From: Nannocystales bacterium
GTDB lineage: Bacteria; Myxococcota_A; Polyangia; Nannocystales; Nannocystaceae
Assembly (NCBI GenBank): GCA_050633305.1
Contig: JBOEGF010000007.1
Location: forward strand, 286,428 to 350,427
Reading direction: 5' to 3'
Length of the DNA: 64,000 nucleotides
Part shown: in pieces, positions 19,808-56,095 of the stretch
Position numbering within the stretch: position 1 is the stretch's first letter
Layout of the letters: every line of letters begins with the position of its first letter
Made by a program: the position numbers and the translations under genes
The notes under the pieces: generated by a model
Seen by the model: the letters and a program-made list of their open reading frames with translations, nothing else
Told to the model about the DNA's origin: nothing
Database searches by the model: none

Positions 19808-20097
19808 CGGTGCGGCGGAACTAGCAGGTCGGGCCGTCCACGGGCAACCGCGGAAGTGTGGTCTGCGCGTGAACCCCGCTGGAAATAGCTTCCGCCGTTC
19901 GGGCGTTCCCCATCGCCTCGGCGTTTCGCTGCCCACGATGTGGGGTCTCCTCCGATGATGTGCGACATGGATTCGCTTGCCCCTCCGCCCTGGCGCGTGT
20001 AATTGAGGGCTCCTCACGGGATTCCGGCTGTGTTTCTCACAGCTCCCGCCTCCACCTTCGTCCCCACCATCACCGGCTAGCGCACTGCGCGCGGTGA

Positions 20098-21174
<1,077 letters not shown>

Positions 21175-21469
21175 GGGGCCCGGCCCCAAGTCGATCAAAC
21201 GGTCATGGCGGCGCCTCGAGAGCCCATGCCGTCGTTCCTCATCGGTTGCTTGTGCCCGACGAACGCTCTCTCCTTATCTGCGGGCCTCTCGGTCCTGCGA
21301 CGGGCGCCGCCGATGTCTGGGCCTCCGTTCGAGCTTCTCTGCGTTGGTCTCCCCCGGGCCATCATCGAAGCATTTGCGCCGGATTCGGGGTGCGCGGTGG
21401 CGCCGTGAGAGCGCTCATGTTGTACCCCGGAATCCAGGGATACACGGTAGCGTTCCGTGAGCCCGGTCC

Positions 21470-22348
21470 ATGGCCGTTTCCCTGCGCAGCATTCAAAACG
21501 CGACGATCGTGGTCGTTCTTCTCGCGATCCCGGTGGTGTTGTTGCGCAACACGGCCGAGAACCCGCATGAGCTGAGCGCGTTCGATCGGTCCGTCCGTCG
21601 CATCGGAGCGCCGCTCGAGGCCGCCGTCTCGTACTCGACCTCGACGATGGGGTCGTTCTTCGAGCGGTGGCTCATGCAGGCGCGGCTGCAGGACTCCAAC
21701 GAACAGCTCGCCGCGGAGAACCGCGAACTCGCGCAGCGGCTTCGGGAACTTGCCGAGTTGGCCGAGGAGAACACCCAGCTTCGACGAGCGCTTCAGATGC
21801 GGGACCGGACGCCGGCCGACATGATCCCCGCCGAACGTGTCGGGGTCGACCAGTCTCCGTTCTTCCGGGTTCTCAACATTCGCATCGATCGCGGGAGCCG
21901 GTTCGCAAAGCCGGGCATGGCCGTGCTTTCTCCGGACGGAGTCGTCGGGCGAGTGGACAAGGTGTTCGACGACTACAGCGACGTCATGTTGGTGACGGAC
22001 GCTCGTTCGAAGATCGCGGTCGAGGTCGCCCGCAGCCGAGCCCAGGGCATCCTCCACGGCGACAGCGAGTACGGCTGCATCGTCGACGTCCCCAAGGACT
22101 ACGAGGTCGAGCCCGGCGAACTCATCCAGACCAGCGGGGTGGATGAACTCTTCCCCAAGGGACACCCGATCGGTCGGGTGGTCGACGTCGAGCAGCTCGT
22201 CGGGGACCAGCAGCGTCTCCACGTCAAACCCGAGATCCGCTTCGATCGGGTCGACGTGATGTGGGTTGTCCTCGCCGGGGCTCCCAGGCCGGACACCAGC
22301 GAGCCCCCACAGGGCCCCCAAGCGATGGGACTACAACCGGTGCGATGA
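21470..22348 (+). CDS. mreC: Rod shape-determining protein MreC
   Basis: N-terminal TM, coiled coil (LAAENREL, EENTQLRRAL), IDRGS, GVVGRV, TSGVDELFPKGHPIGRV; follows mreB. Confidence 0.92.
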   Translation: MAVSLRSIQNATIVVVLLAIPVVLLRNTAENPHELSAFDRSVRRIGAPLEAAVSYSTSTMGSFFERWLMQARLQDSNEQLAAENRELAQRLRELAELAEENTQLRRALQMRDRTPADMIPAERVGVDQSPFFRVLNIRIDRGSRFAKPGMAVLSPDGVVGRVDKVFDDYSDVMLVTDARSKIAVEVARSRAQGILHGDSEYGCIVDVPKDYEVEPGELIQTSGVDELFPKGHPIGRVVDVEQLVGDQQRLHVKPEIRFDRVDVMWVVLAGAPRPDTSEPPQGPQAMGLQPVR

Positions 22349-22899
22349 TCCGGGCCCTCACATACTTGGTCGTGGGGTGGGCTCTCATCGCCGTCGGTGG
22401 AGGCCTTGCCGACGTCTTCATGATCACGGTCATGCTTCCCGCGACGTCGGTCGTATTGCTGACCCACATCGCATTCTCCCGGGCGATGCCACTGCCCATG
22501 GGGCTCGCGCTGGCCGTCTCGTTCGGCTACCTCGAAGACCTGCACCAAGGGGCGCCCGTGGGAACGCTGACCTTGGCCTTCGCGCTCGCGTTTCTCGCCC
22601 TGTCTTGGGCGGCGGAGCGCATTGCAGTCTCCGGGTGGCCGACGCGCATGCTCACCGCGTTCTTCTCGGTGGTGCTCGTGGATCTGCTCACCGCGGGGGT
22701 GCTCGCTGCGCTTGCCGATCCCCTCGGACTTCGCCGAGAAGCGCTGTGGGTCGCGCTGTGGGACGCTCGGTGGCACTGCATCGCGACGGCCTTGGTGGCG
22801 CCGCCGATCTGGACTCTGTTTGAGCGCTTGTTTTCCTTGCTGAAGATCGAAGAGCCTCGGGCGCCTGATGGGCCTTCCCCGTTGGGAGCGCGTCGGTGA
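22345..22899 (+). CDS. mreD: Rod shape-determining protein MreD
   Basis: Polytopic membrane protein with GYLEDL motif; ATGA overlap with the mreC stop; lies between mreC and mrdA. Confidence 0.8.
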   Translation: MIRALTYLVVGWALIAVGGGLADVFMITVMLPATSVVLLTHIAFSRAMPLPMGLALAVSFGYLEDLHQGAPVGTLTLAFALAFLALSWAAERIAVSGWPTRMLTAFFSVVLVDLLTAGVLAALADPLGLRREALWVALWDARWHCIATALVAPPIWTLFERLFSLLKIEEPRAPDGPSPLGARR

Positions 22900-24932
22900 T
22901 CAGCCTTCATCAGAAGGACGACCTCCGCGAACTTCGTCCTCGCTTTCAGGCGACGGTCATCTTCGTTGCGCTCGCGTTCCTCGCGTTGGCCGGGCGGCTA
23001 TGTCAGCTGCAAGTCCTCGAGGCCGATCACTACGACCGCCGCGCCGAGCGAAACTTCATCGACAAGGTCGACGTCGAGGCGCCGCGGGGTCGGATCTACG
23101 ACATCAAGGGACACCCCCTCGCGACCAACCGTTCGTCGTACACGCTGTACATCACGGGGTGGGCGCGGTTCCGCTTGGAACCTGAGGGGGGCGTGGTCCC
23201 GACGCCGGAAGGAAAGCGGGAGGCGATGGACGACACGACGCGCGACCGCATCTTGTCGTTGATCGACTTCATCGACGAGGCCGACCGCGACAAGTTCCTC
23301 GGCGTGGTCGAGGAGTTGCGTGCGGACGAAGCCAAAGGCAGATACGCACAGATCGCGCGCCGGAACCTCAGCTGGGAGGAGTACGCCCGCATCGAATCCC
23401 GGTTGGAAGTGCTCGACCCGTGGGTGGAGATCCGCGAGAGTTCTCGTCGATTCTATCCCGAGGGCGTGCTCACTGCGTTCGTGACCGGGCAGATGGGGAA
23501 CGTCAGCTCCCGGACGCTCGAAGGGTCTCCGCACCTGGGCTACCGGTTGGGTGACCGGGTTGGCCAGACGGGGATCGAGCGGCAGTGGGAGAACTACCTT
23601 CGCGGTCGACTCGGCGCTCGCTGGCGGGTCGTCGATGCCCGGCGTCGGGAGGTCGACGATGCGCCCGGGTGGGCGGTCGACTCGCTTCCGCCCGTCCAGG
23701 ACCCGATCCCCGGCCAGGACATCTACCTCACCCTCGACCTCGACCTGCAGACCGTCGCGTACGAAGCAGTGTCGGAAAAACTCGCCGGTGCGGTCGTGGC
23801 GATGGACGTCAACACGGGTCGGGTGCTTGCGACCGCGTCGGTTCCAACGGTGGATCCCAACCGCTACGAGCAGCCGATTCCCCTTGCCGAGTGGAAGGCT
23901 TGGTCCGACAGCCCGCTCAAGCCGTTCATCGACAAGGCGGTCCAGGAGCACTTCTTCCCCGGCTCGACCTACAAGGTTGTCTCGGCACTGGTCGCTTTGG
24001 GCGACCCCGAGTTCGATCCGGACGAGGAAATCGAGTGCGAGGGCTATGTGAAGTTCGGTAAGCGGAAGTTCCGCGATACGCACGTGCACGGCCCGATGAA
24101 CCTCGAGCAGGCGTTGGTGCACTCGTGCAACTCCTACTTCTACGAACTCGCCATTCGCAACACGCTGAGCCTCGAGCGCGTTGAACCGGTTGCACGCGCG
24201 CTGGGCTTGGGGGAGCGGACCGGCTTGGGGATCAACGGTGAGGTCAAGGGCACGGTCCCCACCGAGGAGTTCGAGGCTCGCGAGGGCACGTACCAGGGCG
24301 GCGTTCGTCTCAACAGCGCGATCGGGCAGGGCAACGTGAAGGCCACCGTGATGCAGATCGCCGTGGTCTACGCGGCGATTGCCAACGGTGGATACGTGCT
24401 CACGCCCTACCTTGTCGACCGCATCGAGACCAATGACGAGAAGCTCGTCTTCTCGAGTCAGCCGCAGCGACGAAGCGAAGCGCCTGTCTTGGATGCCAGC
24501 GACCGAGCACGAATTCATGCCGGACTCGTGGGGGTGGTGAACAACGAGGAGGGCACCGCATACAGCGAGCGACCGGACAACATCGTCGTGGCTGGAAAAA
24601 CCGGAACCGCTCAGGTCGGCCGTGAGTATCGGACCGAAGGCGAGACGGAGATCGAGGGCTGGGACACCACCGCCGACCATGCTTGGTTTGCAGCGTATGC
24701 GCCTGCGGACGACCCGCAGATCGTCGTTGTCGCGCTGGTCGTTCACGGCGGGACGGGTGCTGATGCTGCCGCTCCCATCGTGATGCGGGTGATCGACCAC
24801 TACCTCGGAGACACCTCCTCGGAGACTGAGCTCCGCCCACGGGCCTACGGCGTTCCGCCCCCGCTTCCTGGGCAACAAGCCGACGACACCCCGGTTCGCG
24901 GTGGTGGGCTCGGCAAGGAGGCCGCGCCGTGA
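22896..24932 (+). CDS. mrdA: Penicillin-binding protein 2 (peptidoglycan D,D-transpeptidase)
   Basis: APRGRIYD, SxxK (PGSTYK), SxN (SCN), KTG (GKTGTAQ), DHAWF. Confidence 0.95.
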   Translation: MISLHQKDDLRELRPRFQATVIFVALAFLALAGRLCQLQVLEADHYDRRAERNFIDKVDVEAPRGRIYDIKGHPLATNRSSYTLYITGWARFRLEPEGGVVPTPEGKREAMDDTTRDRILSLIDFIDEADRDKFLGVVEELRADEAKGRYAQIARRNLSWEEYARIESRLEVLDPWVEIRESSRRFYPEGVLTAFVTGQMGNVSSRTLEGSPHLGYRLGDRVGQTGIERQWENYLRGRLGARWRVVDARRREVDDAPGWAVDSLPPVQDPIPGQDIYLTLDLDLQTVAYEAVSEKLAGAVVAMDVNTGRVLATASVPTVDPNRYEQPIPLAEWKAWSDSPLKPFIDKAVQEHFFPGSTYKVVSALVALGDPEFDPDEEIECEGYVKFGKRKFRDTHVHGPMNLEQALVHSCNSYFYELAIRNTLSLERVEPVARALGLGERTGLGINGEVKGTVPTEEFEAREGTYQGGVRLNSAIGQGNVKATVMQIAVVYAAIANGGYVLTPYLVDRIETNDEKLVFSSQPQRRSEAPVLDASDRARIHAGLVGVVNNEEGTAYSERPDNIVVAGKTGTAQVGREYRTEGETEIEGWDTTADHAWFAAYAPADDPQIVVVALVVHGGTGADAAAPIVMRVIDHYLGDTSSETELRPRAYGVPPPLPGQQADDTPVRGGGLGKEAAP

Positions 24933-26044
24933 ACCCATTGCTCGATGATCCGCGCAGCTGGAGCGCGCGCCTCCGTCACTCGATCGACTGGGTGGTCATC
25001 ACGTTGACCGCTGCCATCGTCACGCTTGCGGTCATCAACCTCAACAGCGCGGGTGATGGCGACTGGAGCGGTCGGGTCGCGACGCAGCTGCGTTGGATCG
25101 GTCTTGGGTCGATCGCCATGCTCATCGTCACGGCGATCGATCTGCGCGCCGTGTATCGGCTGGCGTATGCGGCCTACGGGTTTGGCGTGGGGCTGCTGTT
25201 GCTCGTCCCGTTCTTCGGGATCAAGGTCAACAACGCCCAGCGCTGGCTCGGCGTCGGCGACTATCGGATCCAGCCCTCCGAGCTGATGAAGGTGCTCATC
25301 GTGCTCGCGCTCGCTCGCTTTCTGCACGATGCGGCGGCCAAGGAACTCTCCAACCTGCGCCGTCTGGTGGTGCCTTTCGTCATGGTGCTGCTGCCCGCGG
25401 CGCTGATCATCCGGCAGCCCGACCTCGGCACGGGGATCATGCTGCTGCTGGTCTCGTTCTCGCTCGTCGTGGCCGCCGGTCTTCGGGTGCGCATCATCGT
25501 GGCGGTGCTGTCCGCAGCGGTGGTGTCCGTGGCGATCGGCTGGAGCTATATGGAGAACTACCAGCGCCGGCGCATCGACGTGTGGCTCGACCCTGAACTC
25601 TACGCGGACACGGACGGGTACCAGACCATTCAGGCCATGATCAGCGTCGGCAACGGCGGCTTCTTCGGCCGCGGACTGTCGCAAGGATCGCAGAATGCAC
25701 TGGGCTTCTTGCCCGAGCCCTACACGGACTTTCCGTTCGCGGTGTACGCCGAGGAGTGGGGCTTTGTCGGAACCGCAATGGTGCTGGTGCTGTTCATGAG
25801 TCTGACGCTGTGGGCCGTCAACTTGGCCTCGCAGGCCAGCGACCGGTTCGGATCTCTGCTCTGTATGGGCGTTGCCGCGCTGTTTTTCTGGCACGCCGTC
25901 GTCAACATCGCGATGGTTCTGCAGCTCGTCCCTGTCTCCGGGATCACGCTTCCGTTCTTCTCGGCGGGGGGTAGCAACGTCCTGACGATGATGCTGGGGC
26001 TCGGGGTCCTGATGAGCGTGTCGAGATCTCGGCACGCGCGCTGA
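24929..26044 (+). CDS. rodA: Rod shape-determining protein RodA (SEDS family)
   Basis: AQRWL, IQPSELMK, QPDLGT, GYQTIQAMISVGNGG, FLPEPYTDF, EEWGFVG, GITLPFFSAGGS. Confidence 0.95.
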   Translation: MNPLLDDPRSWSARLRHSIDWVVITLTAAIVTLAVINLNSAGDGDWSGRVATQLRWIGLGSIAMLIVTAIDLRAVYRLAYAAYGFGVGLLLLVPFFGIKVNNAQRWLGVGDYRIQPSELMKVLIVLALARFLHDAAAKELSNLRRLVVPFVMVLLPAALIIRQPDLGTGIMLLLVSFSLVVAAGLRVRIIVAVLSAAVVSVAIGWSYMENYQRRRIDVWLDPELYADTDGYQTIQAMISVGNGGFFGRGLSQGSQNALGFLPEPYTDFPFAVYAEEWGFVGTAMVLVLFMSLTLWAVNLASQASDRFGSLLCMGVAALFFWHAVVNIAMVLQLVPVSGITLPFFSAGGSNVLTMMLGLGVLMSVSRSRHAR

Positions 26045-37741: not shown

Positions 37742-39202
37742 ATGGCGCAGTCCCAGCTCACCTTCCGGCGGCCAGGCTCTGGCCCCCCCGGCCCGGGCGA
37801 GAAACCACCGGTGCTGACGGTCAGCCAGCTCGTGAAGGGGGCCAACCGCTTGCTCGAGCTTCGTTTTCCACGGCTGTGCGTGGAAGGAGAGGTCTCCAAC
37901 CTGCGCGTCGTGGCGTCGGGACACGCCTACTTCACCCTCAAAGACGATTTCGCGAACCTGCCGATCACGATGTGGCGCAGCAACGTCGAGCGGCTGAAGT
38001 TTCGGATGCACGACGGCCAAATGCTGCGCGTCTACGGCAGTTTGGGCATCTTCGTGAAGTCCGGCCGCTTTCAGATGTATGCCGAGCGAACCGAGCCTGC
38101 TGGGCTGGGCGCTCGCATGCAGGAGCTGGAGGCGCTCAAGAAGACCCTCCAAGCTGAGGGTCTGTTCGACGACACCCGCAAGCGCCCACTGCCCCGTTGG
38201 CCGCGACGGATCGGCGTGGTGACCTCGGCTCACGGCGCGGCGATTCACGACATCCTCAAGGTCGCCCGTCGTCGGTGCCCGTCTCGGATCCTGCTGGCTT
38301 CCGCGGTTGTGCAGGGCCCTGATGCCCCACGGACCATCGTCCGGGGCATGAAGCGGCTGTGCGGGTATGAGGACGTGGACGTGATCATCATTGGCCGCGG
38401 CGGTGGCTCGGTGGAGGACTTGTGGGCCTTCAACGACGAGCGGTTGGCGCGGGCGATCGCTGCGTGCCCCGTACCGGTCGTGAGCGCGGTCGGCCACGAG
38501 GTCGACATCTCGGTCAGTGACATGGTCGCCGATGTCCGGGCCGCAACGCCGTCACACGCTGCAGAGCTGGTGGTTCCGGATCGGGCGTCGTTCCAACATC
38601 GGCTCGAAACGATGCAGCGCCGGATGGCCCGGGCGGTGGAGCGTGCAGCCCTCGATGTCCGGGCCCGTTTGGATGGGGACCGTGGGCGGCTCGTCGCCCA
38701 CGGGCAGCGTTTGGTGCTGCCGGCGCGGGCTCGGTTGAGGGCGTTGGAGCGACGTCTGGCCAACGTGCACCCTCGGGCGAAAGTCGCGTCCGACCGGCAG
38801 CGGCTCGCGTCCTTGAGGAGCCGCCTGGAGCGGGCGGGGACCGGGCTCTCCAAAGGGGCGCGGGCCCGATTCGAGGCCGCACAGACGGCATTGCACGGCC
38901 GTGGTGCGGGTCTGGCGGAGGACGAGCGGGCGCGCCTGGACGCGGCGCGGGTGCGGCTGGAGCGAGGCGGCCGGGCGATCGGCGAACGGGGGCGGCTGCG
39001 GTTGGCGAAGTCGGCCGCATCGCTTCACGCTCTGTCTCCGCTGTCGGTGCTCGCGCGAGGGTACTCGGTGGTCGTGGCCCCGGGCGGAGCCGCGCTGACC
39101 TCCGCGGAGGGCACCTCGGTGGGTGACCCCGTGCAGATTCGACTGTCCCAGGGCTCGCTCAGCGCAACGGTGACCGCGGTGAAGCCTGGGGATGGGACGT
39201 GA
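37742..39202 (+). CDS. xseA: Exodeoxyribonuclease VII large subunit
   Basis: VEGEVSN, SGHAYFTLKD, IGVVTS, GRGGGSVEDLWAFN, SAVGHEVD, ADVRAATPS, LSPLSVLARGYS. Confidence 0.96.
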   Translation: MAQSQLTFRRPGSGPPGPGEKPPVLTVSQLVKGANRLLELRFPRLCVEGEVSNLRVVASGHAYFTLKDDFANLPITMWRSNVERLKFRMHDGQMLRVYGSLGIFVKSGRFQMYAERTEPAGLGARMQELEALKKTLQAEGLFDDTRKRPLPRWPRRIGVVTSAHGAAIHDILKVARRRCPSRILLASAVVQGPDAPRTIVRGMKRLCGYEDVDVIIIGRGGGSVEDLWAFNDERLARAIAACPVPVVSAVGHEVDISVSDMVADVRAATPSHAAELVVPDRASFQHRLETMQRRMARAVERAALDVRARLDGDRGRLVAHGQRLVLPARARLRALERRLANVHPRAKVASDRQRLASLRSRLERAGTGLSKGARARFEAAQTALHGRGAGLAEDERARLDAARVRLERGGRAIGERGRLRLAKSAASLHALSPLSVLARGYSVVVAPGGAALTSAEGTSVGDPVQIRLSQGSLSATVTAVKPGDGT

Positions 39203-40014
39203 GCACGGCGCGGTGTTTCGGGGTGCTGGGGCATCCGATCGGCCACTCGAAGTCCCCCGCCATGCACACCGCAGCCTTCGAGGCGCTGGGTCTTCCGCAC
39301 CGATACCTCGCGTTCGATGTGGCCCCCGATGGGCTGGCGGACGCGCTGGTGGGGGCCGCTGCGCTCGGTTTTGGGGGGCTGAATCTCACGGTCCCGCTCA
39401 AGACCCACGCGCTCGCGTTGATGGATGAACTCGCGCCTGAGGCCGAGGCCATCGGAGCGGTCAACACGGTGTGTTTCACGGAAGCGGGCACGCTCGGCCG
39501 AAACACGGATGGGGCCGGGTTCATGGAGGCGCTACGTCCTCTTCTGGACACGCTTCCCGCCCGAGCTGTGGTGCTCGGTGGCGGGGGTGCATCCCGGGCG
39601 GTGGCCCACGCGCTGGCCGAATCGGGCGTGCAGGTCCAGTGGGTGTCGCGTCGTCCGGGCGCTCTGCCGGGTTGGTCGGGTGTGACGGCCCTTGGGTACG
39701 ACGAGCTGTGGGCGGTGCTGGGTGAGGCGGAGCTGCTGGTCAACGGGACGACGGTCGGGATGCAGGGAGGGGCGCTGGGCTTTCCGGTGCCGGTCGAGGT
39801 GACGGCGCTGCCCGCCCGCGCAGTGGTGGCCGACCTCGTGTATCCCGAGCCCACGGGGGGCCTGGTCGCTCAGGCCCGGTCTCGGGGCCTCCGGGCGATG
39901 GACGGTCTCCCGATGCTCTGGGGGCAAGGTGTGCTCGCCCTGGAGCACTGGTTGGGCGTATCGCTGCACACACGGGCCCGGACAGCGATGCGGGTGTCCC
40001 TCGGCCTTGGGTGA
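39199..40014 (+). CDS. aroE: Shikimate dehydrogenase
   Basis: GHPIGHSKSPAMH, NLTVPLK, GAVNT, NTDGAGF, GGGGAS, DLVY. Confidence 0.95.
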   Translation: MSTARCFGVLGHPIGHSKSPAMHTAAFEALGLPHRYLAFDVAPDGLADALVGAAALGFGGLNLTVPLKTHALALMDELAPEAEAIGAVNTVCFTEAGTLGRNTDGAGFMEALRPLLDTLPARAVVLGGGGASRAVAHALAESGVQVQWVSRRPGALPGWSGVTALGYDELWAVLGEAELLVNGTTVGMQGGALGFPVPVEVTALPARAVVADLVYPEPTGGLVAQARSRGLRAMDGLPMLWGQGVLALEHWLGVSLHTRARTAMRVSLGLG

Positions 40015-40177
40015 CACTGTGCTGCTCAATTGAGCATGTGAGCTGTTTCGGTACAGCCAAGGGCTCGGAATCAGTCACTTTTTTGGGACGACGGATCGCC
40101 TCCCTGTATGGGTCGACAGTGCCCCGCGCCGTGACGCGCGCGGAGCCAGATCTCAACACCCGACCACGGACCACGAC

Positions 40178-41545
40178 ATGGCGCATTTCGAACTCGAGGA
40201 CGCATATCCGGACCAAGCCCGCATCAAAGTGATCGGCGTCGGCGGTGCCGGCGGTAACGCGGTCAACACGATGATCGGGCACAACGTTGAGGGCGTCGAG
40301 TTCTTGACCGCGAACACGGATGTTCAGGCGCTCGAAAAGAACCTGGCCCCTACACGCATTCAGCTTGGCAGCGCGATCACCCGGGGCCTCGGCGCCGGTG
40401 CCAACCCCGACCGAGGCCGCGAGGCCGCGCTCGAGAGCATTCAAGAGCTGACCGCAGCGCTTCAGGGCGCAGACATGGTCTTTGTGACCGCAGGCATGGG
40501 TGGGGGCACCGGAACCGGCGCCGCTCCGATCGTGGCCCAGGTGGCCCGCGAGTGTGGAGCGCTGTGCGTGGGCGTTGTCACCAAGCCGTTCCGCTTTGAG
40601 GGACGCCGCCGTGGACGTATCGCGGGCACCGGGATCGAGACCCTGGAGCAGGCGGTCGACACCCTCATCACGATCCCCAACGATCGTCTGCTCGATGTGA
40701 CCAGCACATCGACCAGCTTGCTCGACAGCTTCAAGCTCGCCGACGAGGTGCTTCAGCACGCGACGCAGGGCGTCTCGGACCTCATCACCATCCCGGGCAT
40801 CATCAACGTCGACTTTGCCGACGTGCGTACGATCATGTCCGACCAGGGCCGTGCCTTGATGGGAATGGGAATCGCCAGCGAGGAGGGGCGCGCTGTCGTG
40901 GCTGCCCAGCAGGCGATCAACAGCCCGCTGCTCGAGGACGTCACCATCGAAGGCGCGCAGGGCATCCTGATCAACATCACCTCGGGTCCGGACCTGAAGC
41001 TCCACGAAGTCGAAGAAGCGGCCTCACTGGTGCAGGAAGCGGCTCACGAGGACTGCAACATCATCTTTGGCGCCGTCATCGACGAGTCGATGGGCGAGAC
41101 GCTTCGCATCACGGTCATCGCGACTGGGTTCGATCAGCATCAGCCGGCCGAGGAAGTCCTCGAGCACGCGATTCAGAATCACGGGCACCGTCGCCAGAGC
41201 TCGATCGTGGCCGCCGGTTCCATGGGCCCGCGTGGTCGCCAGATGGTCACCCCCGGACCCGCGATGCGTCAGCCTCAGGGTGCCAACGCGTTCATGAACG
41301 CGGGGACGCAGCAAAAGCCCGCACCTTCGCTGACCCGTGGCGCTGTGCCGCGCGCCCAACAGCCGCAGTCGCGGGCACAGCAGCCTGCGCCTGCGGCTCA
41401 AGCCCAGCCGCAGCCCGAACCTCGCAACACGTCGTCCACCTCGAGTGGTGGCTGGCCTGCACCCGAGGTGACCTCCGGTGACCCGCAGGACATCCCCGCG
41501 TTCTTGCGACGCCGCCCCGACAACGGCGACGGCTTCATGCGATAG
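40178..41545 (+). CDS. ftsZ: Cell division protein FtsZ
   Basis: IKVIGVGGAGGNAVN, GMGGGTGTG, INVDFADV, C-terminal DIPAFLRR. Confidence 0.98.
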   Translation: MAHFELEDAYPDQARIKVIGVGGAGGNAVNTMIGHNVEGVEFLTANTDVQALEKNLAPTRIQLGSAITRGLGAGANPDRGREAALESIQELTAALQGADMVFVTAGMGGGTGTGAAPIVAQVARECGALCVGVVTKPFRFEGRRRGRIAGTGIETLEQAVDTLITIPNDRLLDVTSTSTSLLDSFKLADEVLQHATQGVSDLITIPGIINVDFADVRTIMSDQGRALMGMGIASEEGRAVVAAQQAINSPLLEDVTIEGAQGILINITSGPDLKLHEVEEAASLVQEAAHEDCNIIFGAVIDESMGETLRITVIATGFDQHQPAEEVLEHAIQNHGHRRQSSIVAAGSMGPRGRQMVTPGPAMRQPQGANAFMNAGTQQKPAPSLTRGAVPRAQQPQSRAQQPAPAAQAQPQPEPRNTSSTSSGGWPAPEVTSGDPQDIPAFLRRRPDNGDGFMR

Positions 41546-41608
41546 CCGTATGTCCCACGGACCAGCGGAGGCCACCGGGTCTCCGCCGCGGTCTTGTGGG
41601 AGACAACC

Positions 41609-41651
41609 AACGAAAGAAGGCGTCCCGGAATCCGGAACGCCTTCTGTCGTT
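41609..41651. terminator. Imperfect inverted repeat between convergent ftsZ and histone genes (probable terminator)
   Basis: AACGA(A)AGAAGGCGT(C)CCGGA-a-TCCGG(A)ACGCCTTCT(G)TCGTT. Confidence 0.55.
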
Positions 41652-41697
41652 CGTGTCTGCCGCGAGCGGCAAGCACGGGGTGTTGAACCGTAGAGGA

Positions 41698-41907
41698 CTA
41701 CAAGTCGTAGGGGCGGACGGTGCCGCGCTTGTTGTCTTGAGCGCGCTGGATGGCTGCCTCGAGGAGATCGTGGACCTTCTCGGACACGGCCTGGACCAGC
41801 TCACCGTCGCTACGCAGGCCGGCGTTGCGGACAACGTCCTTGACCTTGGAGCCGACGACAACCACTTCGCGGGGTTTCTTCTTGGATGCTTTCTTTGCCT
41901 TCGCCAT
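41698..41907 (-). CDS. Bacterial histone-fold protein with Lys-rich N-terminal tail (69 aa)
   Basis: MAKAKKASKKKPREVVVVGSKVKDVVRNAGLRSDGELVQAVSEKVHDLLEAAIQRAQDNKRGTVRPYDL. It shows alpha1 (VVGSKVK), a long alpha2 and the histone L2/alpha3 motif R-x-T-V-x-x-x-D. Purine-rich GAGAAG upstream of the ATG; codon usage is strongly biased. It is the C-terminal part of the 41698..42492 ORF call. Confidence 0.88.
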   Translation of the reverse strand: MAKAKKASKKKPREVVVVGSKVKDVVRNAGLRSDGELVQAVSEKVHDLLEAAIQRAQDNKRGTVRPYDL

Positions 41908-42209
41908 TGTCTTCTCGCCTGTCTGTTGTGGGCACGTGCTGCATGAACAGCTCGTTGCGATTGGATTGTAGGCAGGTCGGATCCGCTGACAACTGAAAAA
42001 TGCCCCCAATTGGCCGAATTCCGCAGGGGAGCGGATCTTGTGGTTTTGGGCGCACCTGCGCCGACCCCAGCCGGGTGGATTCTGAGGATGCGTAGAGGGG
42101 CTCTGCACCGGGCACCTGCGGCAGATGACGGTTTTTTGCCTTGAGGGCCGTGTCCCTGTATTGCCGAGATAAGGCCCTCTAACTGGCCGAATTGGCCCAA
42201 AAGACGACG

Positions 42210-43328
42210 ATGTCGAAGCGCACGCAGACCAAGAGTCGCCCACCACGGCGACGGGCCAAGAAGGCGACTTCGGCACGTGCGGGCAATCAGCGACGACAGC
42301 CCCGAGCGACCGCTGGTGGGGCTGGGGAGGCTCGTACCAACGCTTCTCCGCGCACTCGCGGCGGGGAGAAGATCCCCCCCGGAGCCTTCTCGCGGATGCC
42401 CAAATGGGCCCGAACGACCGCACGTTGGGGGTTGAGGCTCGGCATCGCCGGGGGCCTCTCCTACGGCGCGTTGCTGGGGGTTCAAGAGGCATACGACTAC
42501 GCGACCACGTCGCCGCGCTTCGAAGCCCGCGCGTTGCTGTTCGAGCCGACCTCGCATGTGAGCGACGCAGAGCTGCGGGCGCTGATGGGCATCACGCCCG
42601 GGACGAACATCCTGTCGCTCGAGGTCGAAGGCTTGGCCGCGGCCGTCTCCGAGCACCCTTGGGTCCGTCGTGCGAGCGTGACTCGAGAGCTGCCCGATAC
42701 GCTGATCGTCGAGGTCGAAGAGCACAGCCCACGCGCAGTCCTGCTCGCTGGGGACTTTTTCCTCGTTGGGGAAGACGGCATCCCGTTCAAGCCCTTGGAG
42801 TCCGGCGAGCGCGGGACGCTGCCGATCGTCACGGGGGTCGACGCTTCGCTGGTGTTCACCGAGCCCGAGCGGGCACAGAAGGTGGTGGCGCGAGCGCTGA
42901 CGATTCTCGAGGCCTACTCGACCAAGCAGCGGCCCCGCCTCAGTGAAGTCAACATCGACGAGACCGGCGCGGCGACGCTGTACACCGCTGACCTTGGAAG
43001 TCAGCTCCGCCTGGGCCGGACGAACATCGAAGCTGCGCTGACCCGATATGACGCCCTGCGTGCGGCGTTGGGTGAGGAGTCGGACAAGCTTGCCGTCGCG
43101 CATCTCGATGCGAACTCGGCCCTCGAGGGAAAAGACCGCATCGTCGCGAGTTTCTTCCCGACCAAAGATGCTCCGGAATTCGTCGAGGACGCCACGGAGC
43201 AAGCACACCAACGGGCGCTCGAGCACCGGCTTGCGCTGGACGCTGCGAAGGACGCAAAGAAACACAAGAAGAAGGGCTCCAAGAAGGGAGCCCGCGGCGG
43301 CAAGAGTCGTCTGCCGCGATACGAGTAA
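42210..43328 (+). CDS. ftsQ: Cell division protein FtsQ/DivIB
   Basis: Single TM, POTRA domain (GTNILSL, HPWVRRASVTRELPDTLIVEVEEH), LPIVTG; directly upstream of ftsA. Confidence 0.9.
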   Translation: MSKRTQTKSRPPRRRAKKATSARAGNQRRQPRATAGGAGEARTNASPRTRGGEKIPPGAFSRMPKWARTTARWGLRLGIAGGLSYGALLGVQEAYDYATTSPRFEARALLFEPTSHVSDAELRALMGITPGTNILSLEVEGLAAAVSEHPWVRRASVTRELPDTLIVEVEEHSPRAVLLAGDFFLVGEDGIPFKPLESGERGTLPIVTGVDASLVFTEPERAQKVVARALTILEAYSTKQRPRLSEVNIDETGAATLYTADLGSQLRLGRTNIEAALTRYDALRAALGEESDKLAVAHLDANSALEGKDRIVASFFPTKDAPEFVEDATEQAHQRALEHRLALDAAKDAKKHKKKGSKKGARGGKSRLPRYE

Positions 43329-43339
43329 ACGGAGCAGTC

Positions 43340-44623
43340 ATGGCCGAGGTTGGAGAAATCATCTGCGGATTGGACGTCGGAACCACCAAGGTGGCCGCGA
43401 TCATCGGTGAAGTCACCGAGAGCGGCATCGAGGTTCTCGGTGTTGGGACGAGCCCCTCCGAGGGCCTTCGACAGGGGGTCGTGGTTAACATCGAGGCGAC
43501 CACGGGCAGCATCGCTGCGGCCGTCGCAGAGGCCGAGCAGATGGCGGCTGCGGACGTGCAGTCGGTCTACGTGGGCATCGCAGGCGGCCACGTGCAGGGG
43601 TTCAATAGCTTTGGACAGGTCAGCATGCGCTCTCGCGAGGTCGAGGACATCGACGTCGCGCGGGTGATCGAGCAGGCCAAGGCGGTCAACATCCCGCTCG
43701 ACCGGAAGATCCTGCACACCATCCCGCTCGAGTACATCATCGACGGGCAGGGCCAGATCCGCGATCCCATCGGCATGAACGGCGTGCGCATGGAAGTGAA
43801 GGCTCATGTGCTGACCGCTTCGCTGACGTCGGTGCAGAACATCGTCAAGTGCTGCAACCGCGCGGGGCTCGAGGTGATCGAAGTCGTCCTCGAGCCGTTG
43901 GCGAGCTCGCGCGCGGTCCTGCATCAAGACGAGCGTGACCTTGGCGTTGCGATCATGGACATTGGTGGCGGCACGACCGACCTCTCGGTCTGCTCCGAGG
44001 GCAGCAACGTGTTCACCTCGGTGATCGTCATGGGCGGTCATCGCATCACCCAGGACGTCGCCCACGGGTTGCGGACCAGTGTGTCCGAGGCCGAGGCGAT
44101 CAAGCGCAAGCACGGCTGCGCACTGATCAGCATGGTGGAGGGGGACGATGTCATCGAGGTTCCCGGTGTCGGTCCCCGTCCTCCCCGCGAGTTCAAGCGC
44201 CGGTTCCTCGCGGAGATCATCGAGCCCAGGGTCGAGGAAATCCTCTTGATGGCGCAGCAAGAGCTGCTCGCCAGCGGGTGTGCGGAGCTGGCGGCCAGTG
44301 GCCTGGTGCTCACCGGGGGCGCCTCTGCGATGCCTGGAATGATCGAGATCGCCGAGGACATCTTCCAGATGCCGGTGCGTCAGGGCGTGCCGACGTCGAT
44401 CCCCGGCGGGGAACGACATGGCGTGGTGTCTCTCGCAGAGGGCGGTTTCGCCTCGATGGTGTCGGACCCCAAGTTCGCCACAGGGGTCGGTTTGGTCCTG
44501 TACGGCGCAACACACGAGCCGATGGCAGAGGCTGCGGAGCTCGTCCCTGGCAAACGGTCTGCTCGAGATGAAGGTCCTGGAGCGTTCCGTCGCATCACGG
44601 ACTGGGTTCGGGATATCTTCTAG
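43340..44623 (+). CDS. ftsA: Cell division protein FtsA
   Basis: GLDVGTTKV, GLRQGVVVNIE, DIGGGTTD, VLTGGAS, FATGVGL, C-terminal amphipathic FRRITDWVRDIF. Confidence 0.97.
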   Translation: MAEVGEIICGLDVGTTKVAAIIGEVTESGIEVLGVGTSPSEGLRQGVVVNIEATTGSIAAAVAEAEQMAAADVQSVYVGIAGGHVQGFNSFGQVSMRSREVEDIDVARVIEQAKAVNIPLDRKILHTIPLEYIIDGQGQIRDPIGMNGVRMEVKAHVLTASLTSVQNIVKCCNRAGLEVIEVVLEPLASSRAVLHQDERDLGVAIMDIGGGTTDLSVCSEGSNVFTSVIVMGGHRITQDVAHGLRTSVSEAEAIKRKHGCALISMVEGDDVIEVPGVGPRPPREFKRRFLAEIIEPRVEEILLMAQQELLASGCAELAASGLVLTGGASAMPGMIEIAEDIFQMPVRQGVPTSIPGGERHGVVSLAEGGFASMVSDPKFATGVGLVLYGATHEPMAEAAELVPGKRSARDEGPGAFRRITDWVRDIF

Positions 44624-45550: not shown

Positions 45551-45787
45551 CTACGGAGTCCGCGTGGTGAGGGAATCGACCGCGTGCACGGGCGCGCCGT
45601 CGCCCTTCATCAGGTGGGCGATCGAGCTGAGCACCAGCCGCTGTGCCTGCACGCGGTTCTTGCCCTCGAAGGCCTCGGAGAGGACGTCGAGCGTGTAGTG
45701 CCCGCCTCCGCCGTTCACCTGGACGGTGGCGCCGGGAATCGCTTCCTCGATGGAGGTGCGGAGTTGGTCGAGGATCGAAGCGGTCAT
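45551..45787 (-). CDS. bolA: BolA/IbaG family protein
   Basis: GGGHY, SEAFEGKNRVQAQRLV, PVHA. Start at ATG 45787. Confidence 0.88.
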   Translation of the reverse strand: MTASILDQLRTSIEEAIPGATVQVNGGGGHYTLDVLSEAFEGKNRVQAQRLVLSSIAHLMKGDGAPVHAVDSLTTRTP

Positions 45788-45848: not shown

Positions 45849-47234
45849 CTAGGTCGCTTCGAGTTGCTTGATGAGCTTTGGCCCGATCCGTGTGACCGAG
45901 CCCGCACCCAGCGTCAGGACGAGGTCCCCTGAGCGGCACATGGACGCGAGCTGTTCGGGGAGGGCGTCGAAGTCGCTGACGTGTTGGGCGGGCCTGTCGG
46001 GGTGCCGCGCGCGGAGTGCGTTGGCCAGGGCCTCGCCGTCGATCCCCGGGATTGGCGACTCGCCCGCGGGGTGCACATCGGTGATGACCACGGTGTCTGC
46101 GTCGTCGAGGCAGGCGACGAATTCCTCGAAGTTGTCGCGCAGTCGGCTGTAGCGGTGCGGTTGGACGACCGCGACGAGCCGCCTGTCGCTGAAGCTGGTT
46201 CGTGCCCCGCCGATCGTGGCGCGAATCTCGGTGGGGTGGTGCGCATAGTCGTCCACCACCATCACGCCCTTGGCTTCGCCCTGGAGGGTGAAGCGGCGCT
46301 GTACGCCGTCAAAGTCGTTGAGCCCCTTTCGAATGGTTTCCGAGGGGATCTCGAACAGGTCTGCGATGGCGATGGCGGCCAGTGCATTGGCCACGTTGTG
46401 GACGCCGGGCATCGCGAGCGTGAAGGTGCCGCGGTCGTGACCTTTGCAGAGCACCCGGAACGAGGTCTTGGCGCCTTCGTGCCGCACTTCGGCAGCGACG
46501 TAGTCGGCGTCCGTGCGCGCGATCGCGTAGGTCGTGATCGACTTGTGCAGCTGGGGCAATACGCCCGCAACGTTGGGATCGTCGATGCACACGACCGCGC
46601 TGCCATAGAAGGGCACCCGGTTGGCGAACCCCACGAACGCCTCGAGGACTCGCTCGAGGGTGCCGTAGTGCTCGAGGTGCTCGTTGTCGATGTTGGTGAT
46701 GACGGCGAAGGTCGGGGTCAGATAGAGGAACGAGCCATCGCTTTCGTCGGCTTCGGCGAGCAGCAGGTCGCTTTGTCCGAGTCGCGCGTTGCTCCCGAAC
46801 TGGTTGACCTTGCCTCCGATGACGACGGTGGGGTCGAGGTCGGCGGCCGCGAGGATCGAGGCGATGAGGGAGGTGGTCGTGGTCTTGCCGTGTGACCCGG
46901 CGACCGCGATGCCTTCCTTGAGACGCATGAGTTCCGCGAGCATCTCCGCCCGGGGAATGACCGGAATCTTGCGCTGCCGCGCGGCGACCACCTCGGAGTT
47001 GTCACGCGTGACAGCGCTCGATGTGACCACGACATCTGCGTCGCCGAGGTACTCGGGGCTGTGACCGCGGTAGACCGTCGCCCCGAGCTCGGTGAGGCGA
47101 CGGGTCGTGTCGCTCTCGTTGATGTCCGTTCCGGTGACTCGGTAGCCGAGGTTGACCAACACTTCGGCGATGCCGCTCATGCCGATGCCGCCGATGCCGA
47201 CGAAGTGGATGTGGGTGTCGCGCTTGCGGAACAT
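45849..47234 (-). CDS. murC: UDP-N-acetylmuramate--L-alanine ligase
   Basis: IHFVGIGGIGMSGIA, GSHGKTTTT, EADESDGSFL, DDYAHHPTEI, QPHRYSR. Confidence 0.97.
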   Translation of the reverse strand: MFRKRDTHIHFVGIGGIGMSGIAEVLVNLGYRVTGTDINESDTTRRLTELGATVYRGHSPEYLGDADVVVTSSAVTRDNSEVVAARQRKIPVIPRAEMLAELMRLKEGIAVAGSHGKTTTTSLIASILAAADLDPTVVIGGKVNQFGSNARLGQSDLLLAEADESDGSFLYLTPTFAVITNIDNEHLEHYGTLERVLEAFVGFANRVPFYGSAVVCIDDPNVAGVLPQLHKSITTYAIARTDADYVAAEVRHEGAKTSFRVLCKGHDRGTFTLAMPGVHNVANALAAIAIADLFEIPSETIRKGLNDFDGVQRRFTLQGEAKGVMVVDDYAHHPTEIRATIGGARTSFSDRRLVAVVQPHRYSRLRDNFEEFVACLDDADTVVITDVHPAGESPIPGIDGEALANALRARHPDRPAQHVSDFDALPEQLASMCRSGDLVLTLGAGSVTRIGPKLIKQLEAT

Positions 47235-52907: not shown

Positions 52908-53194
52908 TCCGGCAGTTCGGCTGCGCCAAGGACGCTGCGGTAGGCGACAAACGCGCCTTCCCGCGGCGTTTCTCGTTCGGCAGCCCTCACCCGGCCCTTC
53001 GCTTCGGGTGAGGGAAAGTCGGCGGAAAACCTCCATATCTCGGACTGACCGGGCTCCGTTGCCCTCTGTCCTGTGTTTTGTCGTCGGAATAGCGCCAATT
53101 GCGCGTTGGCGTTGCCCGACAAACCGCATACATTCGCGTCCCACCGGCCCCCGAAAAGGCGGCCTTTGCGCTCCCCGCGCTCGAAGTACACCCG

Positions 53195-56095
53195 ATGGCC
53201 ACTGCCAAGAAGAGCCCCTCCGCGTCCAAATCCTCCAAGAAGGCGGGCGCGAAGAAGAAGGTGACCAAGAAGAAGGTCGCCAAGAAGAAGGTGACCAAGA
53301 AGAAGGTCACCAAGAAGAAGGCCGCGAAGAAGGCCAGCGCAAAGAAGGTGGCGAAGAAGAAGGTCGCGAAGAAGACCGCTGCGAAGAAGACCAGCGCGAA
53401 GAAGGTCACCAAGAAGAAGGCGACCAAGAAGAAGGCCAAAGTCGGCGGCAACGCTTCGGGCCGTCAGCTGGTGATCGTCGAGTCTCCTGCCAAGGCCAAG
53501 ACGATCAACAAGTACCTCGGTGACGACTTCGTCGTTCACGCCTCGGTCGGCCACATTCGCGACCTGCCTGCCAAAGCGCCCAAAGGCGTGAAGATGCCGG
53601 TGCCCGGCGTCGACCTCGACAACAACTTCTCGCCCACCTACGAGGTGCTGCCCGGCAAGGCCAAGACGGTCAACGAGCTCAAGCGCCTCGCCAAGGACGC
53701 CAGCGAAATCTGGTTTGCGACTGACCTTGACCGTGAGGGAGAGGCCATCGCATGGCACCTCGCTCAAGAACTTGGCGTCGAGCCTCTCGATGCCAAGCGT
53801 GTGGTGTTCAACGCGATCACCAAGACCGAGGTTCAGCGTGCGTTCGCCGAGCCGAACGCGATCGACGTGGCCAAGGTCAACGCGCAGCAAGCCCGTCGAA
53901 TCCTCGACCGCATCGTCGGCTATCAGGCATCGCCGCTGCTGTGGAAGAAGGTCGCACGGGGACTCTCCGCCGGTCGGGTGCAGTCGGTCGCGGTTCGCAT
54001 CATCGTGGAGCGGGAGCGCGAGATCGAGGCGTTCGTGCCCGACGAATACTGGAAGGTCACCGCTCACTTGGCGCTCGACCCCGGCAAGGCACCGAAGCTC
54101 GCCGAGAGCTGGACTGAACTGCTCGCGCAGCGCGACGAGAAAAACAAACCGCCCACGCTCAAGGCTCGCAACGCGTGGCTGGCCGAGCATCAGGGACTCA
54201 AGACCGAGCTGGTCTCGATCGACGGCAAGAAGTTCGACGTCAGCTGCAAGGCCGAGTCCCCGAAGGACCTCTCCAAGCAGATTGCGGCTGTCGCCGAGGC
54301 GGTGGGCCTCACCGACGTGACGGTCGAGAACACGCCCGACCCGGACGGTAAGGGACCTGCGCAGGTGAAACGCGCCGTGAACGGCACGCTGGACCCCAAG
54401 GCCCGCTACGCGATCAAGTCGATCGACACCCGGCGCACGACGTCGCGCCCACCAGGCCCGTTCATCACGTCGAGTCTGCAGATCGCTGCGGCCAACCAGC
54501 TCGGCTTCACCGCCCAGCGAACCATGCGGGCCGCGCAGCAGCTGTATGAAGGTATCGAGGTCCCCGGCGACGAAGGCCAGGTCGGTCTCATCACCTACAT
54601 GCGTACCGACTCCACCAACCTGTCGCCCGAGGCCGTCGCCGAGGCGCGTACGTTCGTGTCCGAGTTTGGCGCCGAGTACCTGCCCGAGAAGCCCAACACC
54701 TGGTCGTCCTCCAACAAGGACGCGCAAGAGGCTCACGAGGCGATTCGCCCGACCGCCGCTTCGAGGCGTCCCGCCGATCTCGAAGAGTCGCTGACCCCCG
54801 ACCAGTTCAGGCTCTACGATCTGATCTGGCGACGGTTTGTGGCTGGTCAGATGGTGCCCGCCAAGTGGGACGCCACCGCCGTGTTGTACGAGCGCTCCGA
54901 CACCAAGTCCGGTGCGACGCTCAAGGCGACCGGGCGCGTGCTTGCGTTCGATGGCTTCTACAAGGTCGCCGGTGTCCCGACAGCCAGCGACGAGCAGACG
55001 TTGCCCGAGCTTGCCGAGGGCGACGAGGCAGCCCCGTTCGCCATCAACCCGGACCAGAAGTTCACCTCGCCGCCGCCTCGCTACTCGGAGGCCTCGCTGG
55101 TCAAAACGCTCGAAGCCGAGGGCATCGGTCGTCCGTCGACCTACGCGTCGATCATCAGCGTCATCCAAGGCCGCCGCTACGTCGAGCAGCTCGACCGTCG
55201 GTTCTACGCAACCGACCTTGGCGAGGTCGTCACCGACAAGCTCGTCGAGGCGTTCCCGAGCCTGATGTCGATCGGCTACACGCGCTCGATGGAGGACGAA
55301 CTCGATCGCATCGAGGACGACGAAGGCGATTGGCAGGAGATGCTCACCCGCTTCCACGGCCCGTTCACCGAGGCCCTCGAAGTCGCGCACGAGAGCATGA
55401 CGCACGCCAAGGCTGAGACGCAGCCGGCGCTGTACAAGTGCCCCAAGTGCGGGTCCCAGACCCTGTACCGCTTCGGGCGAAACGGGCGCTTCTTGTCGTG
55501 TTCGACGTACCCCGACTGCGACTACTCGGCCCCGATCGACCGGGCAGGCCGGCCGCTGCTTCCCGAGCGTGTCGACGTGGCCGTGCCCGAGGACGGCTCA
55601 CAGATGGAGCTCCGCAACGGTCGTTTCGGCCCGTTCCTGGCGTCGATCAACTACCCGGAGACCAACTTCGTCCTCAACCTCGACAAGAAGGGCGGCGTCA
55701 AATACCCGTCCATTCCGCCGATCGAGACCGAGCTCGAGTGCACCAAGTGTGATGCCCCGATGAACCTGCGTCGGGGTAAGCGAGGTCCGTGGCTCGGCTG
55801 TTCACGGTTCCCCAAATGTCGGGGCCGAATGGGCTGGAACACGCTCGAGGACGAGATCAAGGACTCGCTGGAGAAGCAGCTGGAGAAGCACGAGAAGGCC
55901 AACCCGCTGCCGAAGATTAAGCGCTTCAGCAACGGTGAGGAGATCCCCGAGGGGCATCCTGTGGCCGAGCTCGTGGTGCCCGGTGGCGTTGCCGAACTCG
56001 AAGTGCATCCGGATGTGAAGGCCGACGCGGACGTCGGCATCAAAGCCGCGAAGAGGCCCCTGCCGCCTCGGCCCGAGCCCACCGCCACGGCCTAG
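53195..56095 (+). CDS. topA: DNA topoisomerase I (type IA) with N-terminal Lys/Ala-rich extension
   Basis: LVIVESPAKAKTI, ATDLDREGEAI, SAGRVQS, ITYMRTDS, QEAHEAIRP, GIGRPSTY, C-terminal Zn ribbons (CPKC, CTKC). Confidence 0.96.
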   Translation: MATAKKSPSASKSSKKAGAKKKVTKKKVAKKKVTKKKVTKKKAAKKASAKKVAKKKVAKKTAAKKTSAKKVTKKKATKKKAKVGGNASGRQLVIVESPAKAKTINKYLGDDFVVHASVGHIRDLPAKAPKGVKMPVPGVDLDNNFSPTYEVLPGKAKTVNELKRLAKDASEIWFATDLDREGEAIAWHLAQELGVEPLDAKRVVFNAITKTEVQRAFAEPNAIDVAKVNAQQARRILDRIVGYQASPLLWKKVARGLSAGRVQSVAVRIIVEREREIEAFVPDEYWKVTAHLALDPGKAPKLAESWTELLAQRDEKNKPPTLKARNAWLAEHQGLKTELVSIDGKKFDVSCKAESPKDLSKQIAAVAEAVGLTDVTVENTPDPDGKGPAQVKRAVNGTLDPKARYAIKSIDTRRTTSRPPGPFITSSLQIAAANQLGFTAQRTMRAAQQLYEGIEVPGDEGQVGLITYMRTDSTNLSPEAVAEARTFVSEFGAEYLPEKPNTWSSSNKDAQEAHEAIRPTAASRRPADLEESLTPDQFRLYDLIWRRFVAGQMVPAKWDATAVLYERSDTKSGATLKATGRVLAFDGFYKVAGVPTASDEQTLPELAEGDEAAPFAINPDQKFTSPPPRYSEASLVKTLEAEGIGRPSTYASIISVIQGRRYVEQLDRRFYATDLGEVVTDKLVEAFPSLMSIGYTRSMEDELDRIEDDEGDWQEMLTRFHGPFTEALEVAHESMTHAKAETQPALYKCPKCGSQTLYRFGRNGRFLSCSTYPDCDYSAPIDRAGRPLLPERVDVAVPEDGSQMELRNGRFGPFLASINYPETNFVLNLDKKGGVKYPSIPPIETELECTKCDAPMNLRRGKRGPWLGCSRFPKCRGRMGWNTLEDEIKDSLEKQLEKHEKANPLPKIKRFSNGEEIPEGHPVAELVVPGGVAELEVHPDVKADADVGIKAAKRPLPPRPEPTATA
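53230..53440 (+). repeat. 15-bp degenerate tandem repeat encoding KKKVT/KKKVA/KKTAA pentapeptides
   Basis: Repeated AAGAAGAAGGT(G/C)(A/G)CC-type units at the 5' end of topA. Confidence 0.9.

Follow-up and report, generated by a model that had tools for sequence, protein, structure and literature searches.

In the canonical cluster of genes for division and the cell wall (dcw), these follow one another in the order murC-murB-ddl-ftsQ-ftsA-ftsZ. Bacterial histones belonging to the FtF (face-to-face) class, which is defined by a predicted torus-shaped homotetramer, have previously been reported in Myxococcota (PMC11390915), and the residues that form their tetramer and their clamp have been described (PMC12701072; PMC11390915). 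In Caulobacter, promoter-site methylation by the solitary enzyme CcrM strongly activates ftsZ and mipZ (PMC4551980), and the promoter sites methylated by CcrM are read by GcrA (PMC4647560). The locus considered in this work is located in a window of 64,000 nt (the whole stretch of DNA analysed, contig JBOEGF010000007.1, 286,428 to 350,427; coordinates are positions in this window unless a contig is named), and its closest named counterparts belong to the Nannocystaceae. The genome under study (G000) is available as an 11-Mb assembly of 90 contigs that is 92% complete. A gene encoding an FtF histone separates there ftsZ from ftsQ and ftsA, in the order ftsZ > < histone | ftsQ > ftsA >. The comparison of this locus with its relatives ties the histone to ftsZ as an old neighbour and, it seems, through a GATC site conserved in both predicted promoters.

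This arrangement is real and family-wide. In a census of 72 Nannocystaceae genomes, 42 of which are at least 90% complete and are called good below, ftsZ was never observed directly 3' of ftsA (0/72). It precedes ftsQA on the same strand in 45 genomes, whereas the genes lie on opposite strands in 2 and on different contigs in 22, one of them being missing in 3. Gene calls made by script used a simple codon model written for this analysis and not a standard gene finder; g, f, G, L and C denote genera, families, genomes, loci and contigs, respectively. By coordinates, the histone is linked in 34 of the 72 genomes, one further case being visible in L090. The linked histones are convergent with ftsZ in 28 genomes, divergent from ftsQA in 31 (directly adjacent in 23) and both in 25, and the cultured species Enhygromyxa salina (L086, L087) and Paraliomyxa miuraensis (L094) are among the carriers of the arrangement. 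In comparison with the canonical cluster, the genes are the same, ftsQ and ftsA are still adjacent and murC is found nearby, together with murB in some genera; the difference is that ftsZ stands ahead of ftsQA with a hairpin and a predicted promoter of its own in all 45 co-oriented one-contig genomes, while the other genes of the cluster are scattered. In G000, contig C10 carries rsmH-ftsL-ftsI and mraY-murD-ftsW with murF, C9 carries ddl, C14 murB and C17 a murG-like match.

The anatomy of the locus was established with Pfam and NCBIfam/TIGR profiles. The 455-aa ftsZ product (40178..41545, + strand; Pfam Tubulin and FtsZ_C, TIGR00065) keeps its C-terminal core peptide and is followed, on the opposite strand, by the 69-aa histone, named copy A (41698..41907, - strand), whose start at 41907 is fixed by a ribosome site and by the conserved starts of its relatives. 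Then come ftsQ (42210..43328, + strand; Pfam POTRA_1 and FtsQ_C) and ftsA (43340..44623, + strand; TIGR01174). ftsZ, ftsQ and ftsA are each present once in the 11-Mb genome. The gap between histone and ftsQ amounts to 302 bp when counted to the ftsQ ATG, an alternative TTG start being available at 42192. The stop codons of ftsZ and histone are 152 bp apart, and this interval contains three hairpins, two smaller ones flanking a strong one (41595..41665, core 41609-41651, both strands). Against 200 shuffles, the folding z-score of the latter is -7.5 on the + strand and -7.4 on the - strand, with no shuffle as stable, and U-rich tails are found on either side. A scan for consensus terminators did not return the 41609-41651 hairpin among its matches. 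Hairpins are observed 3' of ftsZ in most relatives, the histone-less genus g10 included, and the 41595-41665 stem is likely a bidirectional terminator for both genes. The transcripts of ftsZ and histone would end, with high confidence, at one two-way hairpin, ftsQA being served by its own promoter. The gene order, the hairpin, the divergence across about 300 bp and the uncoupling of ftsZ from ftsQA, all proposed in a preliminary description of this DNA, are borne out by gene calls, profiles and folding, ftsZ having its own promoter-like motif, a hairpin behind it and an antisense gene between it and ftsQA. The synteny check asked for at that time finds the linkage conserved in relatives and not unique to this assembly.

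By its sequence, copy A is a face-to-face (HLp-like, alpha3) bacterial histone, with a pI of about 10 and a Lys-rich N-terminal tail. Among solved structures it comes closest to HLp (9QT0), with E 8e-10 and an identity of about 36% across 58 residues, HBb and HTkC being matched at E 0.04-0.05 only. An alignment of 22 homologues shows no variation at R55, N59, R61, T63 or D68; R61, T63 and D68 make up the RxTxxxxD motif of FtF histones, and R55, N59 and R61 align with the dimer-dimer residues R49, N53 and R55 of HLp. Judged by sequence, the alpha3 helix is truncated, L69 being the last residue, one after the clamp Asp, and G62, not a Lys or Arg, follows the clamp Arg. The protein falls outside the dimer-histone class (HBb/Bd0055), which is marked by an RKTxxxD motif and by the absence of R48/N52-type tetramer residues, since both of these residues are present. 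It is 99-100% identical among the five same-genus relatives that carry it, and only unnamed clusters of the ESM Atlas were matched. The likeness to the HLp of Leptospira perolatii (PDB 9QT0-9QT2) extends to the clamp, the tetramer residues, the short alpha3 and the basic tail (PMC12701072). The genetic settings differ: the HLp gene adjoins smc and map, and Leptospira is devoid of HU (PMC12701072), whereas the copy A gene sits in the ftsZ/ftsQA locus and G000 possesses three HU/IHF genes, a second FtF copy and a histone with a Cys/His domain. This second FtF histone, copy B, is 75% identical to copy A (C22:107821-108015; L002, L228), has another promoter type and is the sole short FtF copy found in Nannocystis. 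The third one, which bears a Cys/His domain at its N terminus (C43:246500-247714; L003), belongs probably to the ZZ type. Elsewhere, a tandem pair of FtF histone genes was noted in the outgroup genome G058 (L191). By its sequence, copy A adds a new histone to a known class, in a context that is conserved and new.

The origin of this context can be approached outside the family. In G031, the sole genome of its family, murG-murC-murB-ddl-ftsQ-ftsA-ftsZ, two small genes and the histone follow one another on one strand, with aroE and xseA facing them. Out of 44 histone loci collected from Polyangia families other than the Nannocystaceae, 14 are linked, 10 with a same-strand ftsZ upstream within 3 kb and 13 with a convergent aroE. 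The linked loci belong to f28 (9/9), f20 (2/2), f9 (1/1), f12 (1/1) and f15 (1/17); f4, f29 and five families with one locus each had none. In the counts of linkage, the histone of the family member G009, 29 kb from ftsA, was left out, as was the ftsA neighbour of G189, a weak partial match. In a phylum sample, a histone match was obtained in 8/201 genomes and the six new loci had no dcw gene within 1.5 kb; in a metagenome scan, 8/80 loci were linked, most contigs being too short to judge. The mean identity to copy A is 59% for the linked outgroup histones vs 40% for the unlinked ones. The flanks are shared as well: xseA (exonuclease VII large subunit by Pfam, 37742..39202, + strand) and aroE (shikimate dehydrogenase by Pfam, 39199..40014, + strand), which precede ftsZ in the window, are the flanks of the ftsZ-histone block in the outgroups, xseA being the outer one. 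Since the histone is linked downstream of ftsZ in intact outgroup dcw clusters, it has long resided at the cluster's ftsZ end, and its divergence from ftsQ is a by-product of inversions. Three signed reversals lead from the ancestral order to the present one, or two when the histone is not counted. In the stem of the Nannocystaceae, the ancestral tail was permuted to the order described above while the histone kept its own predicted promoter; copy B arose and sits elsewhere, and at least two later losses removed copy A from the locus. Two small hydrophobic genes (for example L058:7812-8626), without Pfam or NCBIfam family, were noticed between ftsZ and histone in f9, f20 and f28, f15 having only one of them; with these queries, no match was found in G000.

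The losses of copy A can be read from a tree of FtsA and FtsZ (43 taxa), in which the Nannocystaceae have a support of 100, the histone-less g10 is nested among histone-bearing genera (95, 96, 94) and g4, g17 and g2 form a single clade (100). As histone-less genera fall inside histone-bearing lineages at two places, this tree implies at least two losses of copy A from the locus. A histone is missing there from four genera, Nannocystis among them, which amount to 34 genomes, and 20 of these genomes keep ftsZ before ftsQA. In the five g10 loci read in this respect, ftsZ, hairpin, promoter motif and ftsQ are packed within 170-310 bp; a sixth, in G015, has a 3-kb insert between ftsZ and ftsQ. The idea that the locus was rearranged around the histone does not survive this comparison, given these 20 genomes and a dcw cluster that is in pieces as a whole. 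The same tree has a very long stem branch leading to the Nannocystaceae (0.93 substitutions per site); FtsA and FtsZ appear to have changed fast around the time of the rearrangement of the dcw tail.

The promoters of the locus were all predicted from sequence motifs. That of ftsZ (40083..40112, + strand) consists of a T-tract, a TTG-type -35 element, an 18-nt GATC-bearing spacer and a TA-type -10 element. A motif of this kind is found in 46/46 family loci, and outgroup ftsZ genes have one even in the canonical order. A sigma70-like scan of the region gave a single match, the TTGTCA-16-TACAAT of the histone at 41992-41965 (41965..41992, - strand), again with GATC within the spacer. Upstream of its -35 element lie three phased A/T tracts (41993..42025, - strand), either UP-element-like or bendable DNA, whose period in 28 family loci is 10.25 bp and whose positions we take to be those expected for a UP element. 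This promoter type is found in most copy A loci; the score of 27/35 obtained for copy A involves some circularity, the matrix having been seeded from copy A hexamers, but the counts for outgroups and copy B are free of it: the match exceeds all 15 shuffles in 11/13 linked outgroup loci, 2/28 unlinked ones and 1/46 copy B loci. The predicted ftsQA promoter (42136..42164, + strand) has a T-tract, a TTGC-type -35 element, a 17-nt spacer without GATC and a TATT-type -10 element. As histone, ftsQ and ftsZ each possess a conserved motif of their own, the locus appears to contain three separate transcription units, with no single shared divergent promoter. Because of its near-consensus promoter and phased upstream A/T tracts, the histone is very probably a strongly expressed single-gene chromatin protein, which would wrap DNA as an HLp-like tetramer.

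What ftsZ and the histone have in common is the GATC of their promoter spacers. It is present in 40/46 ftsZ loci (41 by a looser rule), forming the majority in 12/16 genera, and in 26 of the 29 copy A loci with a matched promoter (8/11 genera). By comparison, GATC occurs in 4/43 ftsQ spacers (1/16 genera), 0/46 copy B promoters, 1/30 smc spacers and, for the genome background, 27/359. In both promoters it is placed about 3-5 nt past the -35 hexamer. It is 100% kept while the flanking bases vary (40-67% for the top base), and it slides by 2-5 nt within the ftsZ spacer. These counts run over kin genomes, which are not independent, and the pattern was noticed post hoc. The conserved GATC is probably a real regulatory site shared by ftsZ and histone. 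The same tetranucleotide stands out at a third place. Among 3607 intergenic regions, the densest in GATC is located directly upstream of smc (C11:275594-275865, L264), with 12 copies over 271 bp, at p 2e-9, whereas the control words never go below 2e-5. In 30 relatives, the region upstream of smc holds on average 7.5 GATC per 300 bp (range 1-15), against 0.1-1.8 for six control words. This cluster may act as a control region sensitive to methylation, or else be an origin-like element. Since no DnaA-box cluster was found with the pattern used, oriC was not placed. An early impression that dnaA, dnaX and nrdJ were GATC-rich was dropped once region length was modelled.

A candidate enzyme for such a site is present throughout the family. 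This beta-class adenine methylase of 280 residues is encoded at C7:67704-68546 on the - strand (L221:2205-3047), beside frr-pyrH. It is found as a single copy in 65/72 family genomes, 42/42 good ones and 17/17 genera, and frr, pyrH and genes without known function are its recurring neighbours in 30 loci. It is also present in the Polyangia families f4, f13, f20, f28 and f29; it was not found in f10, f11 and f15 (0/31) or in f9 (0/1). Among its best plasmid relatives, at 55-58% identity, are second methylases from cassettes of the DpnII family. The identity reaches 55% over 250 residues with the middle methylase of pSRQ700, whose cassette combines a Dam-like methylase, a beta-methylase and a DpnII-family nuclease and which presumably encodes LlaDCHI. 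CcrM-like matches show 42-44% identity, and the NCBIfam CcrM profile gives 247.8 bits, below its cut-off of 830, over profile positions 5-262 of 350. The family methylase resembles therefore the second (DpnA-type) methylase of the DpnII/LlaDCHI cassettes; it differs from it in being chromosomal, single-copy, mostly located beside frr-pyrH and vertically kept, and a search restricted to the DpnII family gave no nuclease match in the 92% complete G000. The site of LlaDCHIA is given as GmATC (PMC4132740). The single D12 match in G000, which no NCBIfam model fits, was set aside as a candidate Dam-type GATC writer.

The comparison with the CcrM/GcrA system rests on a seemingly solitary, clade-wide beta-class adenine methylase and on a putative site kept in the promoter of ftsZ; the site is here GATC and not GANTC, the Nannocystaceae enzyme is devoid of the C-terminal part of CcrM, and a histone gene is a candidate target. 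By this analogy, a CcrM-like methylation input on ftsZ and histone is plausible. Several claims of decreasing probability can be distinguished. The best-supported reading of the locus, with about an even chance of being right, has three separate units in which ftsZ and histone receive the same GATC input, probably exerted through methylation, and the chances are likewise balanced that what ties the histone to division is a promoter mark it has in common with ftsZ and not a promoter shared with ftsQA. That the spacer GATC is read via its adenine methylation, the solitary DpnA-like enzyme of the family being the methylase, falls a little below this level. It is only tentatively suggested that the replication fork, by leaving GATC hemimethylated, would time the transcription of ftsZ and histone, and perhaps of smc, as CcrM does at the Caulobacter ftsZ. 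Equally doubtful is the broader proposal, again by analogy, that a restriction-derived GATC methylase was domesticated as a counterpart of CcrM or Dam, its sites at the ftsZ and histone promoters and the dense array upstream of smc coupling replication to the synthesis of FtsZ, histone and condensin.

A number of observations weigh against the old tie of histone and ftsZ or against a methylated GATC input on both. Concerning the tie, 30 of the 44 outgroup histone loci are unlinked, and the histone tree (FastTree, 76 columns), in which copy B nests within copy A, is weakly supported. In L085, L093 and L101, ftsZ is absent within 5-10 kb downstream of copy A and, judging from these loci and from the losses of copy A, at least two in number, the adjacency of histone and ftsZ is dispensable. 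Concerning the GATC, 6/35 copy A loci gave no promoter match and do not enter the 26/29, three matched ones (g3, g7, g9) have no GATC, and the ftsZ promoters of g5, g8, g9 and g16 have none despite the methylase. Only 3/10 anchored outgroup ftsZ promoters (12 examined) contain it, f28 having it in 2/7 though the methylase is present in 11/11 genomes of this family, while f9 and f15, where the methylase was not found, have linked members (G031, G061) that keep the histone-ftsZ link. GATC is under-represented in intergenic DNA (O/E 0.86). The region upstream of the methylase shows no consistent GATC (0-5 in 230 bp), g4, g17 and some g10 have a weak smc cluster of 1-4 sites, and the upstream regions of dnaA, dnaX and nrdJ are not among the strongly enriched ones, dnaA being only modestly so. 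Finally, the GATC specificity of the methylase is assigned from homology only.

Some of these points speak for the main rival, a passive synteny in which a highly expressed histone is simply an old neighbour of ftsZ carried along by local inversions, the GATC sites are independent features of promoter strength and the methylase serves housekeeping or defence across the genome, with no bearing on these promoters. Besides the poor correlation between GATC and methylase in the outgroups, this explanation accounts for the repeated loss of copy A while the permuted order persists, for the insertions on either side of the histone, for neighbours such as aroE and xseA, which are equally persistent without having a role in division, and for the scattering of the whole dcw cluster over C7, C9, C10, C14 and C17. 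It does not account for a GATC that is fully kept amid variable flanks and yet slides in the ftsZ spacer, for control promoters that have none, or for the smc cluster as the top genome-wide outlier; with these facts set against it, passive synteny appears unlikely, if still a serious contender.

The GATC might instead be the core of a site for a transcription factor or a polymerase cofactor that controls ftsZ and histone without methylation. Its similar position relative to the -35 hexamer in both promoters would suit such a factor, as would its presence in the G031 histone and G061 ftsZ promoters, where the methylase was not found. The poorly conserved flanks and the sliding position are, however, a better fit for a short modification site than for a protein operator, and a DpnA-like methylase kept as a single copy in every good genome would have no part in this scheme, which is considered improbable.

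The coupling proposed in the preliminary description, one shared divergent control region driving histone and ftsQA and thereby linking chromatin compaction to divisome assembly, is more improbable still. It would be suggested by the 23/72 genomes in which the histone is directly divergent from ftsQA, by -35 elements lying back to back only 95-170 bp apart (11 loci where both were found) and by the phased A/T tracts between them, which could bend DNA or bind the histone. The motifs are however separate and variably spaced. The ftsQ motif differs from that of the histone and persists unchanged in genera that lost the latter, and the promoter type of the histone is older than the divergent layout, being already present in outgroups with a co-directional histone 3' of ftsZ. 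A sufS-like gene or other DNA intervenes in g3, g5, g11 and part of g14, the separation reaching 2.5-24 kb in 8/31 divergent cases, and ftsQ does not have the common GATC. Co-regulation of the histone with division is thus favoured by sequence evidence as far as ftsZ is concerned, through the shared GATC, and disfavoured for ftsQA. As to an assembly artefact, which the 90 contigs of G000 might have invited, its probability is negligible because the same histone-interrupted order recurs in independent assemblies (25/72 family genomes, the cultured E. salina and P. miuraensis included).

Other features of the region deserve mention. Downstream of ftsA come a hydrolase gene, a bolA-like gene (45551..45787, - strand) and an inverted murC (45849..47234, - strand), the last two being leftovers of the upstream dcw part that face ftsQA. 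The bolA-like gene is directly 3' of murC, whereas other genera have murC-murB-bolA; murB is gone from the locus in this genus, and its C14 copy was missed by the outgroup murB query. Long minus-strand open reading frames (ORFs) over ftsQ and ftsA (264, 576 and 553 aa) were taken as antisense shadows. The cytoplasmic N-terminal tail of FtsQ is unusually long and basic (21 Lys/Arg in 72 residues, pI 12), and its C-terminal tail is Lys-rich. An elongation cluster, mreB-mreC-(mreD-like)-pbp2-rodA, is located at about 20000-26044, about 14 kb upstream of ftsZ, and the longest reading of a topoisomerase I ORF (53099-56095) has an N-terminal, histone-H1-like Lys-rich stretch (weak HC2 match). In the relatives, the sufS-like insert is a rhodanese-SufS-metallo-beta-lactamase-fold fusion gene (L068:189-2657; L038, L041, L047, L050, L085, L098, L140), and a Major vault protein homologue (L040:3323-5920, G009; Pfam MVP_shoulder) is found near ftsQA in one member of the family.

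The literature searched contains no report of the histone-dcw link, of this dcw order or of the methylase, although published surveys of dcw order and the gene-neighbourhood supplements of PMC12701072 and PMC11390915, outside this search, could mention them. The arrangement is, as far as these searches reach, undescribed. Most carriers of bacterial histones are uncultured. Here, a conserved tie between an FtF histone and ftsZ is observed across six Polyangia families, with cultured carriers (Enhygromyxa salina, Paraliomyxa miuraensis) and with natural comparators, the Nannocystis species, which have the unlinked copy only. A family-wide break of the ftsQ-ftsA-ftsZ order is documented at the same time. 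If the proposed reading of the GATC is true, the Nannocystaceae would provide one more case, independently evolved, in which methylation controls ftsZ, with a histone as target. If the epigenetic circuit as a whole is true, histone expression would be coupled to replication in a bacterium, in a manner loosely reminiscent of S-phase histone synthesis, and the split between ftsZ and ftsQA would have let the timing of ftsZ and histone part from that of the rest of the divisome.

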